NCBI GenBank assembly: GCA_963803515.1
Contig: CAWDMQ010000002.1
Span: 78,163 to 142,162, forward strand
Direction of reading: 5' to 3'
Source of the DNA: an uncultured Acidobacteriota bacterium
GTDB taxonomy: Bacteria; Acidobacteriota; Terriglobia; Acidiferrales; UBA7541
Length of the DNA: 64,000 bases
In this document: piece after piece, positions 49,453 to 56,332 of the stretch
Layout: each line of letters begins with the position of its first letter
Numbering within the stretch: the stretch's first letter is position 1
Translations under genes and position numbers: made by a program
Notes under the pieces: model-generated
Told to the model about the DNA's origin: nothing
What the model saw: the letters and a program-made list of their open reading frames with translations, nothing else
Database searches by the model: none

Positions 49453-49709
49453 TGCGGGTCGCTCGGTAGCGCGCGGTGCTCATCGGCGGCTTCAGGAGAA
49501 TGGCTTGTGGGTGCAAAGACAGCGTCGCGATATTCACTTTCGTAGCGCATCCTCTACGCGGGCGAGCCATGTGTGAAGGCCGAGTAGCGTGTCAAATTCT
49601 CACGGCTGCTGATTGAGTCGGTTGCACTGCGGACGCAAGCTACACTGCGGTGCATCGCGCTGAATAGCGAAATTGACCGACATCAGGCAGAACGATAGAG
49701 TGTACGTTG

Positions 49710-50639
49710 ATGCAAACTAATCGATTAGGGATCATGAAGCGATTTGCCGATCGGGGCATGCAGTCTTCCCGCACGGGTATTTTCGCCAACCTGGTCCTGG
49801 CGATTACGAAATGTTTGGCTGGCCTCTTGGGGCACTCATTCGTATTGGTCGCGGACGGCCTCGAGTCGGTCGCCGACGTCGTGAGTGGGCTGGTCGTCTA
49901 CTTTGGGCTCAAAATTTCCATTAAGCCGCCGGACTCGGACCATCCGTACGGGCACGGGAAAGCCGAACCCATCGCGGCTCTGGTCGTCGGGCTGTCGCTA
50001 GTAGCGGCAGCGGTGGCCATTATTCTGGAAAGCATTCATGGCATTCGTACACCGCACGCTTTGCCCAAAGCATATACGTTGGTCGTGCTTGCGGGCGCGC
50101 TGGTGGCAAAGGAAATTCTTTTTCGGCATGTCGGGGATGTCGCGGACAACATCGGCAGCGTCGCCGTAAGAGGCGATGCCTGGCATCACAGAAGCGATGC
50201 GATTACCTCGGCCTGCGCGTTCGTGGGAATTTCGATTGCGCTGTTGGGAGGATCTGCGGCCGCCGATGATTGGGCCGCGCTCGGAGCCGCAGTTGTGATT
50301 CTTTATAACGCGATGAGACAAATACGGCCGGCGATTCTTGAACTGGCGGATCGGGCGCCGGACCCTAGTCTCGAGACGCGGATCAGGGCCATTGCGCGAA
50401 AAGTACCGAACGTCATTGGCCTGGACAAGTGTTTCGTGCGGAAGATGGGCTTTAGCTTCTATGTTGATTTACATATTGTCGTAAATGGGCAGCTCACGGT
50501 GCGAGAAGGCCACCGGATCGCACATGATGTGGAAGCCGAGGTACTCAACGTGATGCCGCAAATCGCCGAAGTCCTGGTTCACGTCGAACCGGAGGAAGAA
50601 TTAACCAGCAAAGTGCAGGCGGGCGTTCATCAGCTTTGA
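49710..50639 (+). CDS. cation diffusion facilitator (CDF) family metal efflux transporter
   Basis: Six TM helices with ADGLESVADV (TM2) and HHRSDAITS (TM5) metal-site motifs, and a C-terminal cytoplasmic domain ending VLVHVEPE. Confidence 0.85.
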   Translation: MQTNRLGIMKRFADRGMQSSRTGIFANLVLAITKCLAGLLGHSFVLVADGLESVADVVSGLVVYFGLKISIKPPDSDHPYGHGKAEPIAALVVGLSLVAAAVAIILESIHGIRTPHALPKAYTLVVLAGALVAKEILFRHVGDVADNIGSVAVRGDAWHHRSDAITSACAFVGISIALLGGSAAADDWAALGAAVVILYNAMRQIRPAILELADRAPDPSLETRIRAIARKVPNVIGLDKCFVRKMGFSFYVDLHIVVNGQLTVREGHRIAHDVEAEVLNVMPQIAEVLVHVEPEEELTSKVQAGVHQL

Positions 50640-50892: not shown

Positions 50893-51288
50893 CTAGAAAG
50901 CAGCGACCGCAGCCTCGGCGACTGCATGGTCCTGATCGCCGGACCCGCCGCTCACTCCCACGGCCCCGACTACTTTTCCTTCGCGCTTCAGGGGTATGCC
51001 ACCGGCGAAAATCATGATCTTTCCGTCATTCGAGGCATGGATGCCAAAGAATTGACCTCCTGATTGGGAATGCGTGGCCAGGTCCTTGGTCGCGATATCA
51101 AATGCCCGCGACGTGTAGGCTTTCTTGATCGAAATATCGATGCTGCCAATCCAAGCTCCGTCCATTCTGACGTGTGCGACCAGGTTTCCACCCGCATCGG
51201 CCACCGCAATATTCATCGGCTGCTTAAGTTCAAGCGCCTTTTTCTCAGCGGCAGCGATTATCCTGCGCGCGTCGTTCAGCGTCACCAT
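50893..51288 (-). CDS. GlcG/HbpS-family (DUF336) haem-binding-like protein, second copy
   Basis: 131 aa with NIAVADAGGNLVAHVRMDGAWIGSIDISIKKAYT...GGIPL...VGAVGVSGGSGDQD. Confidence 0.8.
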   Translation of the reverse strand: MVTLNDARRIIAAAEKKALELKQPMNIAVADAGGNLVAHVRMDGAWIGSIDISIKKAYTSRAFDIATKDLATHSQSGGQFFGIHASNDGKIMIFAGGIPLKREGKVVGAVGVSGGSGDQDHAVAEAAVAAF

Positions 51289-51421: not shown

Positions 51422-52246
51422 TTAGAGCTTTTCCGCGCTGATGAGAACATACCCCAACTGACGTTGTTCAACTGCGGCGTGGGCACTTTGCGCCATTTTT
51501 TTAGCGGCCGCGAAGCCCATTCCTGGAAGGTGCAGTTTTTTCAGGCCCACCAGAATTTCCGCTCCGAACAATTTTTTCTGAACCTGCTCGACCATGTCGC
51601 GGAGCGCATCATCGTGTTTTTCAACGTCCACGATGCTCAGGCCGGCTTCGACAAGGAAGCTGGTGTAACCCTCGATGGGTTGGGCATCCGCAATGCACGC
51701 GAGGTGCGCAAGCAATCCTTGCAAGTCTTCACTCAGTACGGAGGTTCGCGTGATATCGCTGATTCCGACGCGCCCTCCAGAACGAAGCGCGCGTGCAAAC
51801 TCGCGGGCCACGGCTGCTTTGTCCGTGAACGTACAGAATGCGCATTCGCAGAAAATGGCATCGAACGCGGCATCATCCACAGGCAGCGATTCCGCATCGG
51901 CGCGCTCAAAACGGACACGCGGGGCAACGCCGCTGGCAGCCGCCAAATCCGCCGCCCTTTGCACATTTTCGCCGCCGTAGTCCAAACCGAGGACCTCGCA
52001 GCCAAACTGCTCGGCCAGAAATATCGCACTGGTGCCTCTTCCGGAGGCCAGGTCGAGAACCCGGCTCTCGGATGTCAGGCCGAGCATTTGGGCTAACCTT
52101 CTCGTCAAATCGACCCCGCCGGGGTGAAATGAATCGCCCAGAAGCAATCTGGCGAGATCGCTCTCGTACAGCTGGGAGCAGCACTGCTTTACAGTGTCAC
52201 CATCCATCGCCGGTGTGGCCGCTTGTGAATTGCCAGAATCAGTCAT
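51422..52246 (-). CDS. class I SAM-dependent methyltransferase
   Basis: SAM motif I VLDLASGRGTSAIFLA, acidic motif II GLDYG, and an N-terminal CC-containing segment (VKQCCSQLYESDLARLLLGDSFHPGG). Its ATG overlaps the stop of the upstream radical SAM gene (4 nt). Confidence 0.8.
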   Translation of the reverse strand: MTDSGNSQAATPAMDGDTVKQCCSQLYESDLARLLLGDSFHPGGVDLTRRLAQMLGLTSESRVLDLASGRGTSAIFLAEQFGCEVLGLDYGGENVQRAADLAAASGVAPRVRFERADAESLPVDDAAFDAIFCECAFCTFTDKAAVAREFARALRSGGRVGISDITRTSVLSEDLQGLLAHLACIADAQPIEGYTSFLVEAGLSIVDVEKHDDALRDMVEQVQKKLFGAEILVGLKKLHLPGMGFAAAKKMAQSAHAAVEQRQLGYVLISAEKL

Positions 52247-53826
52247 CGTGCATCCGCCCGCGGCGCAATTTTAACCGGTGTCTCACCGCTGATTTCACGC
52301 GTCGAATTGAAGCTGAACTGAATGGGCCTGGGCTCGAACCGTTGTCCTTGGGCTTTGGCAAGGCGCCGCTCCGGCTCGAGGGCTTCCAGCTGTGCGCGGG
52401 CCTGTTCGCGATAACCGACGCTGTTATACGCGCAGAACGGAATTTGTTTGCCGCCGGGAAGGAGAAACTCCTTGCAGCATTTCATCAGATTCTTTTGGTT
52501 TAAGGTCCACGGATCCATGAAGTCTTGCAACATGATCATGATCACGTGACCGGCAATGTCGCCCAACGTGACGCTGCCCGGCAGTCCACAGGATTCGCAG
52601 GAGAGCGCCAATTGATCGACGGATTTCTGCGATCCGGCCACGCTGGACGAGGACCATAGGCTTTCGAGCGCGCCCTTGATTTCCCCGCGGAAGTCGGGAA
52701 AAACGCGATTGGTTATGTAGTCGAGGTAATCATAGACGTTCACAATACGCGGTATCGGCGTGATCGTCTCGCCATCAATGAAGGCGTAAGTCACCGAGTT
52801 GCATGTCGGGAAACAGCACGGCACAGGCACAAAGTCTGAAACTCGGAATTTACTTTCCGTTTGCGCTTCGATAAGCCGCAAAATATCCGGGATCGTCATA
52901 CGCGTCATCGGATCGTGCTGCACGTGCCGCCCGGAGTGAAACGCGGGTTGGAAATTAATCCCGCGGACCGCGGGATGCTTGATGGCGAACTCGATGATCT
53001 TTCCAATTTCATGCTCGTTTACACCACGCTCGATGGCCGGCACGAGCGTCACGTTCAAGCCAATTTGCGCCAGCCGGTCGAGTGCGCGCATCTTTTCTTC
53101 CAGAATTTTGGCTTCGCCGCGAAGAATCCGGTAGGTGTTGGCATCGAACCCGTCGAATTGAAAATAAAGCGAGGGGCGCACTTCATTCAGCTCATCCAGG
53201 AAGCGGTCATCTCTGGCGATGCGTTTGCCATTCGTATTGATCATTACCGACCGGATACCGCGGAGCTTTGCCGCTCGAACGAAATCGATGATTTGCGGAT
53301 GAATCGTGGGTTCGCCTCCCGAAAATTGCACGACCTCGGGAGCACCCTCAGTACGCACGAAGTCATCGAGGACTTGTTCTACCTCTTCCATCGAGAGGCT
53401 GAAACCCGGTCCAGCTTCGGAAAAGCACAACGGGCAGTTCATATTGCACGCGCTATTCACTTCAATAATTCCGAGGCATGCGTGCTGCTGATGATCGGGA
53501 CACAATCCGCAGTCGTGCGGGCATCCTTCGTGAATCTCCGTCCCGTATGCGAGGGGAATCGTCCCCGGCTTGTTGTATTTCCCGAATGTCGTATAGGCCT
53601 CCGCGTCGGCGTATACGAGTGCCTCGAAGGGGCCGCAGTCCGGGCAACGCTTCCGCATGTACACTTTGCTGTCGCGGAGCACAATCTGGGCATCAATAAC
53701 TCTCCGGCAGTTCGGACAGATGCTCCTGGTCAGCTCGTAGAAGACGTAGTCAGCGTCTTTTTTTGTGGGCGCGGGATTGGCGCGGCCATTTCCCTTCGCG
53801 GTAATTTCATGGGTCGCCATTCGCAA
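52243..53826 (-). CDS. radical SAM enzyme of the MJ0619 / Tes (GDGT-MAS, tetraether lipid synthase) family
   Basis: N-terminal rubredoxin-like CPNC...CPDC, an auxiliary cluster motif GCPHDCGLCPDHQQHAC, the radical SAM motif CNMNCPLC, then FSGGEPT, INTNG, YFQFDG and RGINFQP blocks. These match my recollection of the archaeal MJ0619-type proteins. Confidence 0.7.
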   Translation of the reverse strand: MRMATHEITAKGNGRANPAPTKKDADYVFYELTRSICPNCRRVIDAQIVLRDSKVYMRKRCPDCGPFEALVYADAEAYTTFGKYNKPGTIPLAYGTEIHEGCPHDCGLCPDHQQHACLGIIEVNSACNMNCPLCFSEAGPGFSLSMEEVEQVLDDFVRTEGAPEVVQFSGGEPTIHPQIIDFVRAAKLRGIRSVMINTNGKRIARDDRFLDELNEVRPSLYFQFDGFDANTYRILRGEAKILEEKMRALDRLAQIGLNVTLVPAIERGVNEHEIGKIIEFAIKHPAVRGINFQPAFHSGRHVQHDPMTRMTIPDILRLIEAQTESKFRVSDFVPVPCCFPTCNSVTYAFIDGETITPIPRIVNVYDYLDYITNRVFPDFRGEIKGALESLWSSSSVAGSQKSVDQLALSCESCGLPGSVTLGDIAGHVIMIMLQDFMDPWTLNQKNLMKCCKEFLLPGGKQIPFCAYNSVGYREQARAQLEALEPERRLAKAQGQRFEPRPIQFSFNSTREISGETPVKIAPRADAR

Positions 53827-54916
53827 CCGCCTTTCGTGATCTCGATCCGCGTACGATTTCCGAGAGGCCTCGTATAACTTTGCCGGATATCCCTGAGAGT
53901 TGTGCTTCGACGGCCGCCTCGGTCAATACTAGCTGGACTCCCGATGAATAGGTGGGATATGCGTGAATCGTTCCGGCAAGGTCCCTGACGGTCATTTTGC
54001 GATTCATGGCCAGGGCCAGTTCCGTAATCGCCTCACCGGCACGGCTGGCAACGATGGTCGCGCCCAAGATCGTGCCCTGGCGCTTGCTCATAATCTTAAT
54101 AAAACCTTCGCGGTCGTCATCGCACACGGCGTCTCCTGCCGCAGGCTACGAGCAACAAATCGCCACGCGTCTCTTCATTCGAGGTGGATACGACCGTGCA
54201 CGCGCCATCGCGCCGGCATTCTTTAGCTCGCCCCACAAAAAGCGAATTCCCTCGCCCTCAAGGACCTTGCGCATAAGTTCGCGCACATCGGTGTCTTCTT
54301 TGGACAGCAGACGGTCAGCAACGACTGTAACGCGGGCCCCGAGCCGCTGATACGCCTGCGCAATTTCCAGTCCCACCGGGCCTCCGCCGACCACAATCAT
54401 CGATTCAGGGAGGCGATCGTTGTCGAAAATATCCTGGTAAGTCGAAAACGCAATTTCGGAGATACCCACAATCGGCGGAAGGATTGGCCGCGCGCCTGTG
54501 GCGATAAGGAATTTTTTCGAGCGAAGCGTCTGCTCGCCCATCCGAACCGTCCAAGCGTCGAGAAAACGAGTGGGGCCGATAAAAACATCCATGCCCTTCA
54601 CTTTGAGTGCCTCGGGCGTTGTTCCCGCGTATACCTGCTGAATTTTGCTGCGAAGGCAGGCCCGCACTTCGCTCATGTTAATTACGGGTGGGCTCGACTG
54701 GATGCCGTAAGTGGAGGCCAAACGGACCTCGTGCGCGATCTTCGCCACCTTCAACAAGGCCTTGCTGGGAATGCACCCGGTCCAGGTGCAATCGCCGCCG
54801 ATGCGGTCCTTTTCAAGGGGTGCCACGCGCGCGCCAAGCTGAACCGCGAATTCCGCCGCGATCAGACCTGCTGCTCCAGCGCCGATGATAATGAAGTCAT
54901 ACTGTTTGTCGGCCAT
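53807..54916 (-). pseudogene. pyridine nucleotide-disulfide oxidoreductase (dihydrolipoamide dehydrogenase/mercuric reductase-like) remnant with an internal deletion and a frame break
   Basis: ORF 54146-54916 carries the FAD motif FIIIGAGAAGL, the redox-active GGDCTWTGCIPSK and the NAD motif VVGGGPVGLE, then runs out of frame. ORF 53807-54127 encodes only the C-terminal dimerisation domain (GFIKI...HAYPTYS). Roughly 100 residues of the central/NAD domain are missing relative to the usual length of about 460-480 aa. Confidence 0.7.
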
Positions 54917-55309: not shown

Positions 55310-56332
55310 ATGAATCATCGAAGGTACCTCCGAGTCATCGGGCTGATTTTAGTAATGGCTGCGCCGGTGCTTGGGCAGCAGCCACAGAACGATCTCCGGG
55401 CTCCTATGGCGTTTGTTCCGCTTCGCAATCCACGCTTTGTACCGGCTGCAAAAGCAGATTTTCTCAAGAGCGACGATCGGGTCGTCGGCGTCAGCGAGAA
55501 CGGAGTTTCGAAGGCTTATCAGCCGAGCGTGTTGGCATTCCACCATGTTGTCCAGGACAGTTTGCAGGACATGCCCATCATCGCAACATGGTGCTCGCTC
55601 TGCAACACTCCCCTGGTATACAAAAGTGAAGTGGATGGCAGGAAATTGACGTTCGAGAGGGCCGGCAATAGAGGAAATAATTTCTTCATGGTGGACGCGG
55701 AAACCGGCAGTCACTGGCAGCAGATTGGAGGCGACTGCTTCGAAGGACCCATGAAAGGAAAACGCCTGACGATGGTTCCTTTCCTATATACAACCTGGGG
55801 GGAGTGGCGCAAGCAGCATCCGGATACTCTGGCGTTAGTTCCCGAGGCCGCATACAAAGCAGCTTACGAGTTCATGTCTAGCAGGTTTTCGGATATTCCT
55901 TATGGCAGCAACAAGAAACCGGGCCGCGAATTGGTTCGCCAGGAGGACAATCGCCTCCCTAACTACGAACAGGTCATCGGCATTGAGGTTCATGATTCCA
56001 CAAAGGCTTACCCGGTATCGGCGCTGCGCAAAGAACCCGTGGTGAACGACAATATCGCTGGAACGCCCGTTCTGGTCGCCTACGCCGCCGCGAGCGATAC
56101 CACCACCGCATTCTCCCGGAAGATTGGTGGCCAGACATTGACGTTTCATCCCGCTACATCGACGACCATGACCGACTCCGAGACTGGTTCTACCTGGAAT
56201 TTTTACGGCAAATGTCTTGCGGGCAAGCTCGCAGGCCAGCAGCTTGATCGCATGATTCCCCAACCGGGATCATGGTTCGCGTGGGCCGAGTTCCACCCGG
56301 ATACGCAGGTTTATTCCGCACGTTCGCATTAG
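55310..56332 (+). CDS. DUF3179 domain-containing secreted protein
   Basis: Signal peptide, then the family pattern DDRVVGVSENGVSKAYQPSVLAFHHVVQD...PIIATWCSLCNT...F.MVDAETGSHWQQ. Confidence 0.75.
   Translation: MNHRRYLRVIGLILVMAAPVLGQQPQNDLRAPMAFVPLRNPRFVPAAKADFLKSDDRVVGVSENGVSKAYQPSVLAFHHVVQDSLQDMPIIATWCSLCNTPLVYKSEVDGRKLTFERAGNRGNNFFMVDAETGSHWQQIGGDCFEGPMKGKRLTMVPFLYTTWGEWRKQHPDTLALVPEAAYKAAYEFMSSRFSDIPYGSNKKPGRELVRQEDNRLPNYEQVIGIEVHDSTKAYPVSALRKEPVVNDNIAGTPVLVAYAAASDTTTAFSRKIGGQTLTFHPATSTTMTDSETGSTWNFYGKCLAGKLAGQQLDRMIPQPGSWFAWAEFHPDTQVYSARSH

Follow-up and report, generated by a model that had tools for sequence, protein, structure and literature searches.

Tetraether synthase (Tes), represented by the glycerol dialkyl glycerol tetraether/macrocyclic archaeol synthase (GDGT-MAS) MJ0619 of M. 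jannaschii (structures 7TOL and 7TOM) and by MA_1486, carries four metal sites, namely a rubredoxin-like site (C9/C12/C33/H36), an N-terminal [4Fe-4S] cluster (C73/C77/C80 and a histidine), the CX3CX2C cluster of radical S-adenosylmethionine (SAM) enzymes and a C-terminal auxiliary cluster held by cysteines (PMC9433317). Bacterial homologues of Tes have been proposed as candidates for the synthesis of branched GDGTs (brGDGTs) (PMC8941075, PMC11868695; Zeng et al. 2022). An experimentally supported bacterial route to (iso-)diabolic acids is provided by Mss, a radical SAM enzyme of Thermotoga and Thermoanaerobacter for which the same cluster-dependent C-C coupling has been proposed; its authors describe it as only remotely related to Tes, as belonging to anaerobes and as not found in Acidobacteria at E<=1e-50 and an identity of at least 30% (PMC13159169). 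The present analysis concerns a radical SAM gene of the Tes superfamily and the methyltransferase gene that follows it in a 64,000 nucleotide stretch of DNA (the window) from an uncultured Acidobacteriota bacterium (GCA_963803515.1, contig CAWDMQ010000002.1, positions 78,163 to 142,162). The radical SAM protein (hereafter the query) has the whole GDGT-MAS architecture, yet is no orthologue of Tes. Its pairing with the methyltransferase is obligate, and a thiol-redox and transporter context recurs around the pair.

A sequence-only reading of the window had described a 527-aa radical SAM protein with MJ0619-type motifs, whose stop codon overlaps the start of a SAM methyltransferase with a conserved N-terminal CC motif, lying between a decayed FAD oxidoreductase gene and a GlcG/HbpS-like gene in a genome of acidobacterial appearance. 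These features were all recovered (Table 1). The translation of the radical SAM gene contains CPNC...CPDC, GCPHDCGLCPDHQQHAC, CNMNCPLC, FSGGEPT, INTNG, YFQFDG and RGINFQP, its stop and the methyltransferase start share an ATGA, the CC motif was seen in 59 of 60 methyltransferase orthologues, and the assignment of the genome to the Acidobacteriota was upheld. Pfam domains found on the radical SAM protein were Radical_SAM and Zn_ribbon_HMPTM, the latter a HMPTM/MJ0619 zinc ribbon, while the 274-aa protein was found to carry class I methyltransferase domains. Both genes are intact, with every conserved residue retained. In the public annotation the radical SAM protein is called as 525 aa from an ATG two codons inside the TTG start, and the start is probably this ATG, at position 53820.

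Table 1. Features of the window discussed in the text (positions are those of the window).
Feature	Position	Strand	Remarks
Radical SAM gene, GDGT-MAS/Tes superfamily	52243..53826	-	527 aa counted from TTG; from ORF (open reading frame) list and translation
Class I SAM methyltransferase gene	51422..52246	-	274 aa; translationally coupled to the radical SAM gene
ATGA overlap of radical SAM stop and methyltransferase start	52243..52246	-	4 bases common to both genes
Sites of the radical SAM protein			Rubredoxin-like Cys4 ribbon; N-terminal auxiliary CX3CX2C+His cluster; CX3CX2C radical SAM cluster; C-terminal auxiliary cluster cysteines
Pseudogene, FAD/NAD(P)H pyridine-nucleotide-disulfide oxidoreductase	53807..54916	-	CxxxxC redox centre kept; 3' end overlaps radical SAM start
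CDF cation-efflux transporter	49707-50639	+	
HbpS/GlcG-like protein	50893-51288	-	131 aa; PF03928, E=5.6e-44
DUF3179 protein	55310-56332	+	

To place the query within its superfamily, it was compared with characterised proteins by sequence, by fold and by phylogeny. Its top match in the PDB by sequence was M. jannaschii GDGT-MAS (7TOL, E=9e-80), an E-value which puts the family resemblance far beyond chance. The same structure headed the Foldseek search (E=2e-30, TM 0.63/0.67 over ~500 columns), with the next match at a TM of only 0.35, although the AlphaFold model is of moderate confidence only (predicted local distance difference test, pLDDT, of 62). The query is therefore a member of the MJ0619/GDGT-MAS/Tes superfamily, with 7TOL its best match by sequence and fold and all four metal sites kept. 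As a Tes-type enzyme in the narrow sense it does not qualify. It scored 322.1 bits against the NCBIfam model of Tes (NF045702, cut-off 450) and 321.1 bits against that of TrsS (NF045646, cut-off 490), and is thus neither the Tes nor the TrsS equivalog. No NCBIfam model covers the clade of the query, although TrsS and its neighbours are curated.

For the phylogeny, 150 representatives were drawn from a library of 1.84 billion proteins, and maximum likelihood trees of 93 and 123 sequences were built from quick searches, rooted at the midpoint and labelled by NCBIfam scans of 30 members. One clade of these trees holds 7TOL and the Asgard Tes proteins (480-638 bits) and groups with a TrsS clade (490-671 bits) at 87-88% support in the Shimodaira-Hasegawa-like approximate likelihood ratio test (SH-aLRT). 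The query falls outside the clade of MJ0619, in a large, bacterial, unnamed superclade which, in these midpoint-rooted trees, stands apart from Tes and TrsS together across a branch of 97-99% SH-aLRT support; of its members 20 were sampled, and neither the Tes nor the TrsS cut-off was reached by any.

The query shares with GDGT-MAS its domain order, the rubredoxin-like site, the three cluster motifs, the whole fold and the hydrophobicity of the C-terminal segment. The two differ in their separate superclades, in an identity of 33% and at three residues. The ligand columns of all four metal sites are conserved, except that the query, like its close relatives, has Cys in place of the rubredoxin His36. 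Met439 and Tyr459, fully conserved across 1000 archaeal homologues (PMC9433317), are replaced by Gln and Phe in the query, with Q/K/R and F/Q/H found at these positions across the query clade and M and Y (6/7 each) in the Tes clade. Both residues are dispensable in vitro, variants M439A and Y459F/L of GDGT-MAS being still active (PMC9433317), and their loss therefore marks a separate lineage and is not a disproof of the chemistry. The mean Kyte-Doolittle (KD) hydropathy of the C-terminal segment, a crude stand-in for the substrate pocket, was 0.01 in the query and -0.02 in Tes, with TrsS polar at -0.52.

The 274-aa methyltransferase was matched best by the DVU_1556 family (NF045667), at 125.8 bits and below the cut-off of 155. 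The next-best NCBIfam families were arsenite methyltransferases, of which ArsM (NF008823/PRK11873) scored 87.9 bits against a cut-off of 263. Six cysteines (C22, C23, C133, C135, C138 and C184) vary little or not at all, C135 and C184 being invariant across 61 sequences. The two As(III) ligands of CmArsM (5EG5), Cys174 and Cys224, are matched by C135 and C184, respectively, in a phmmer alignment. The conserved N-terminal pair C22 and C23 could not be placed by alignment on the N-terminal domain of ArsM, which has a Cys44/Cys72 pair. The AlphaFold 2 model of the methyltransferase is confident (pLDDT 93), and its nearest folds by Foldseek were AtmM, RebM, MitM, TleD, SDMT, PEAMT and the geranyl and farnesyl diphosphate (GPP/FPP) methyltransferases. 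The window methyltransferase thus resembles ArsM/AS3MT (4FR0, 5EG5) in having invariant cysteines at the As(III)-ligand positions, and perhaps in its extra N-terminal cysteines, but differs in its low family score, in a fold closer to the RebM/MitM/TleD/PEAMT type and in the lack of an ars context. It is ArsM-like in where its cysteines lie and not in family.

The conservation of the pair was surveyed in 80 related loci with an identity of 73-84% to the query (mostly 75-84%), 62 of which had sufficient flanking sequence for neighbours to be counted. The methyltransferase gene directly followed the radical SAM gene in 61 of the 62, in agreement with the earlier suggestion of a two-enzyme module. 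An intact FAD disulfide oxidoreductase gene was located directly upstream of the radical SAM gene or close by in 49 loci, and a gene for a major facilitator superfamily (MFS) transporter was present in 48, the two travelling together directly upstream or divergently. A PHO4/PiT-family transporter gene was found in 14 loci and ECF sigma factor genes also in 14, with a VKOR-family protein encoded directly upstream in ~10 loci that lack the reductase. The recurrent neighbours were completed by a GRDB-like fragment, a HAD hydrolase and MbnB-like genes. With regard to the last of these, genes of the MbnB/TglH/ChrH family (PF05114) were observed a few genes upstream of the pair in six loci (L016, L024, L047, L048, L069 and L083; e.g. 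L047:3552-4445).

Most of the 80 loci belong to Acidobacteriota, including metagenome-assembled genomes (MAGs) of Bryobacterales, but long contigs of Alpha- and Gammaproteobacteria and of Eremiobacterota also contribute, and the proteins of Proteobacteria and Eremiobacterota keep 75-80% identity to the query. Between orders the radical SAM protein is unusually conserved, at 78-90% identity versus 54-73% for the methyltransferase. Within the phylum the clade is scarce. Among 400 evenly drawn Acidobacteriota genomes, examined together with the genome of the window (401 in all), close orthologues at 70% identity to the query were detected in three, all Chloracidobacterium, plus one fragment, and 28 of the 38 genomes of the window's own class had no Tes-family match. 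The distribution of the query clade is rare, patchy and horizontally spread.

A comparable gene set surrounds TrsS, for which 80 metagenomic loci (L089-L168) were collected, 43 of them with sufficient flanks. The operon is strongly conserved and runs from an aldehyde oxidoreductase through a PNDR/dicluster protein (NF045663), the DVU_1556 methyltransferase and the DVU_1555 C-GCAxxG-C-C protein to TrsS and an XdhC-type maturation factor of the aldehyde oxidoreductase (AOR), a makeup which suggests a role tied to a molybdoenzyme. The DVU_1556 methyltransferase lay within 3 kb of TrsS in 37 of the 43 loci, one TrsS-linked methyltransferase scoring 260 bits. A histidine phosphatase was also seen in TrsS operons. 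In most cases an in-frame stop, as would fit a selenocysteine codon, divides the TrsS gene; the window gene has no such stop. Both systems combine a Tes-superfamily radical SAM enzyme, a pyridine-nucleotide-disulfide oxidoreductase and homologous methyltransferases, in which P42, G43 and G44 (xPGG) and E134 and C135 (E-C) are invariant in the window-type and TrsS-linked proteins alike. They differ in that TrsS, the sister of Tes, retains Met439 and in many members contains selenocysteine, while its C-terminal segment is polar and its gene is accompanied by aldehyde oxidoreductase and XdhC genes; the methyltransferase gene lies upstream in TrsS operons and downstream in the query module, and the reductases are not orthologous. 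The DVU_1555 protein, the PNDR/dicluster protein, the XdhC-type factor and the aldehyde oxidoreductase were all absent from the window and the 80 related loci. Two separate clades thus contain the trio of radical SAM enzyme, Cys-bearing methyltransferase and thiol/disulfide oxidoreductase, the reductase of the one being no orthologue of that of the other.

The decayed FAD oxidoreductase gene beside the pair in the window is a pseudogene of the same reductase, a MerA/GR-like class I disulfide reductase with a CxxxxC centre. The damage consists of one frameshift after ~residue 234 and an internal deletion of ~345 nt (~115 codons). Of an intact orthologue, residues 1-234 and 376-465 are matched in one frame and residues 223-260 in another, with no counterpart for residues 261-375. 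With the closest intact orthologues the flanking parts share 59-66% identity (57-66% over the seven compared), and they are no more diverged than the intact orthologues are among themselves, and the damage is therefore recent. No homologues of the MFS, PiT or VKOR proteins were detected in the window's assembly, which is 84% complete.

Other Tes-superfamily proteins of the Acidobacteriota were found to differ from the query in both sequence and surroundings. In 45 of the 401 genomes (11% of sampled species), that of the window not among them, proteins above the Tes cut-off were encoded. These true Tes proteins (540-630 aa, 563-619 bits) are 43-45% identical to M. jannaschii GDGT-MAS (E=1e-145 to 1e-157) and fall inside the archaeal Tes clade with 100% support. 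Of 14 control genomes, those of M. jannaschii, S. acidocaldarius and M. acetivorans alone were matched by the Tes model at E<=1e-120. True Tes was also observed to be concentrated in few families, e.g. in 8 of 8 and 14 of 25 genomes. Zeng et al. reported 42% identity (E=1e-149) for the Koribacter protein and 40% (E=1e-139) for that of Solibacter. Although obtained with MA_1486 instead of GDGT-MAS as the query, these figures are similar to those above, and from this likeness we infer that the published top candidates of Koribacter and Solibacter belong to the true-Tes type and not to the type found in the window.

A methyltransferase gene was found in none of three Asgard Tes loci and in four of 40 other acidobacterial Tes-family loci, three of these four being query-clade orthologues. 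True Tes is without methyltransferase and without the thiol-redox and transporter context, whereas the query has both. The publications consulted make no mention of a partner methyltransferase, and in that of Zeng et al. the word "methyltransferase" does not occur. A third lineage, 34-40% identical to the query, forms a well-supported clade within the query superclade and is likewise without methyltransferase. In 11 loci (among L172-L190; e.g. L183:3220-4008 beside L183:3956-5443) its genes were seen to adjoin a gene for an Lgt-family (PF01790) diacylglyceryl-transferase-like membrane protein, and this Lgt-linked clade includes a gene on Chloracidobacterium chromosome 1. The Lgt-linked context fits a membrane-lipid role better than does the module of the window. 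Tes hits in the Acidobacteriota thus comprise at least four lineages, namely unpaired true Tes, the Lgt-linked clade, a divergent type without the N-terminal cluster (see below) and the methyltransferase-locked query clade, and lumping them as one family would mis-assign lipid producers. Chloracidobacterium validum BV2-C (DSM 113832), which produces iso-diabolic acid, has no true Tes but carries both the module and an Lgt-linked gene, and as a cultured carrier it makes the lipid question directly testable. New here are the extension of the pair by the reductase and MFS genes, the parallel TrsS trio, the unpaired status of the other acidobacterial clades, including true Tes, and the cultured carrier.

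The reading favoured here, given a probability of about 45% for its mechanism and genetic form jointly, is that a mobile accessory unit with the order (PiT-type anion transporter or VKOR) - MFS - FAD disulfide oxidoreductase - Tes-like radical SAM enzyme - Cys-rich methyltransferase uses a radical to activate a C-H bond of a hydrophobic substrate, with thiolate-centred methylation as the next step. In the C-terminal pocket this substrate would lose hydrogen from an unactivated carbon to 5'-deoxyadenosyl radicals, as in GDGT-MAS, and the carbon radical so formed would not be joined to a second lipid tail but trapped by sulfur of the C-terminal auxiliary cluster or by a heteroatom bound to a thiolate. 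The methyltransferase, with C135 and C184 at the positions of Cys174 and Cys224 of ArsM, would methylate this soft centre, the disulfide reductase or VKOR would cycle a dithiol/disulfide couple, and the MFS protein would move substrate or product. In the window's genome the module would have been reduced to its intact two-gene core, with the transporters absent and the reductase recently broken. MiaB and RimO perform radical C-H activation, use auxiliary-cluster sulfur and then carry out SAM-dependent methylation, all in one polypeptide; their logic resembles the proposed reading split over two proteins, with no homology beyond the radical SAM core. Radical trapping on cluster sulfur has a precedent in the C-S intermediate documented for GDGT-MAS (PMC9433317). 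Heteroatom insertion with methylation, if this is what the pair performs, would be a new reaction type in the Tes superfamily. The radical SAM enzyme is probably not an iso-diabolic acid or brGDGT synthase.

Several points weigh against this favoured reading. We infer its mechanism from the anatomy of the two proteins and from gene context, and the pocket is judged by hydropathy. The likeness to ArsM consists of one local alignment (E ~1e-6) and sub-threshold hidden Markov model (HMM) matches, and ArsM was not in the top 50 Foldseek matches of the methyltransferase, the nearest of which were natural-product, phosphoethanolamine and prenyl-diphosphate methyltransferases. Among the neighbour clusters of the related loci no ars, selenium, sulfur-assimilation or lipid genes were recurrent, the first three of which bear on this reading. 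Loss of Met439 and Tyr459 is compatible with C-C coupling, and Chloracidobacterium, an iso-diabolic acid producer, carries the module. A special form of the same chemistry, in which the module makes lipids or long alkyl/prenyl chains with a methylated heteroatom at the tail end, of the omega-methylthio or dimethylarsinoyl type, is regarded as a long shot. The Tes-like enzyme would here make a terminal carbon radical that is trapped on cluster sulfur or on As or Se bound to thiolates of the partner, and then methylated. We know of no enzyme for the formation of omega-methylthio lipids or of dimethylarsinoyl-type lipids (arsenolipids).

Production of lipids that span the membrane, as put forward in the sequence-only reading and by Zeng et al. 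2022, would have the radical SAM enzyme couple two iso-C15 tails to give iso-diabolic acid or brGDGTs while the methyltransferase adds methyl branches or modifies the head group. The GDGT-MAS fold and metal sites of the query and a C-terminal segment as hydrophobic as that of Tes (KD 0.01 vs -0.02) speak for this, as do the binding of ordinary bacterial phospholipids by GDGT-MAS and the activity of its M439A and Y459F variants (PMC9433317). Chloracidobacterium species that produce iso-diabolic acid have the module and no true Tes, Bryobacterales MAGs carry the module, and Solibacter usitatus, a brGDGT maker, has two Tes homologues (PMC10087280). However, the query lies outside the Tes clade and under its cut-off, and the true Tes proteins in 45 of the 401 genomes are better candidates on identity to GDGT-MAS (43-45% vs 33%). 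The second, Lgt-linked gene of Chloracidobacterium is likewise better suited to a lipid role. Iso-diabolic acid is made by almost all species of subdivisions (SD) 1, 3, 4 and 6, a widespread occurrence set against a query clade present in three of 400 other genomes and a lack of any Tes-family match in 28 of the 38 genomes of the window's own class. As established enzymology has it, class I SAM methyltransferases cannot methylate a saturated alkyl carbon. Tes homologues occur in only 3 of 14 iso-diabolic acid producers (PMC13159169), and the neighbours of the pair are a disulfide reductase, transporters and VKOR with no lipid genes. Given the clade, the cut-off, the loss of Met439 and Tyr459, the unpaired true Tes elsewhere, the ArsM-like thiolate pocket and the non-lipid neighbours, the case for the pair as a promising source of iso-diabolic acid or brGDGTs did not hold up; this lipid role is weakened, not refuted, and is considered unlikely. 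A BfaA/BfaB-type route to methyl branches, by olefin methylation and flavin-dependent reduction, was also considered and rejected, as the flavoenzyme is a CxxxxC disulfide reductase and the methyltransferase is of another type than CFA synthase.

The alignment of C135 and C184 to the As(III) ligands of ArsM, with arsenite methyltransferases as next-best families, raises instead a metalloid detoxification or organometalloid module, in which an ArsM-like enzyme would methylate As, Sb, Se or Te and the radical SAM enzyme would form a carbon-metalloid bond, the reductase would keep the metalloid and thiols reduced, PiT would import an oxyanion and the MFS protein would export the product. A radical SAM enzyme beside ArsM has precedent in arsenosugar biosynthesis (ArsS/ArsM) and arsinothricin biosynthesis (ArsL/ArsM), and the MerA/GR-like reductase, the PiT/PHO4-family transporter in 14 loci and the patchy cross-phylum spread, typical of resistance-type cargo, agree with this role. 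It is nevertheless held to be quite unlikely. The query is not known to be related to ArsS and ArsL, the ArsM score is 88 bits against the cut-off of 263 and ArsM is outside the top structural matches. In addition, no arsR, arsC, acr3 or other resistance genes recur near the module, and a conservation of 78-90% would be unusual for an accessory gene of detoxification. Two further alternatives, namely that the module serves to mature a cofactor or protein, in analogy to TrsS, and that it is a decaying nonfunctional remnant in the window's genome, appear together to be improbable. For maturation there is the TrsS operon context, which includes an aldehyde oxidoreductase and XdhC_rel_AOR, but molybdoenzyme and XdhC genes are both absent from the surroundings of the query-clade module and the hydrophobic pocket segment is unlike that of TrsS. 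A remnant would account for the reductase pseudogene and for the MFS, PiT and VKOR genes undetected in the 84% complete assembly; against it, both core genes are intact with all conserved residues, and the reductase damage is recent.

Other features of the window and its genome were also recorded. An Rfam scan of the window returned no families, and promoter and terminator scans gave chance level only. The HbpS-like gene, which the sequence-only reading had placed downstream of the pair, is present there, but along with the CDF and DUF3179 genes it was ruled out as a part of the module, as all three were absent from the 80 related loci. It should also be noted that the window's genome carries, outside the window, a second Tes-superfamily gene (contig C1:607468-609571, minus strand), the fourth lineage mentioned above. 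This paralogue is split by one frameshift, either real or an assembly error, into ORFs of 352 aa and 391 aa (~697 aa joined). It lacks the N-terminal CX3CX2C auxiliary motif, has a zinc-ribbon insertion and a long charged C-terminal tail, and keeps the equivalents of Met439 and Tyr459. Its scores with the Tes and TrsS models are 326 and 219 bits, respectively.

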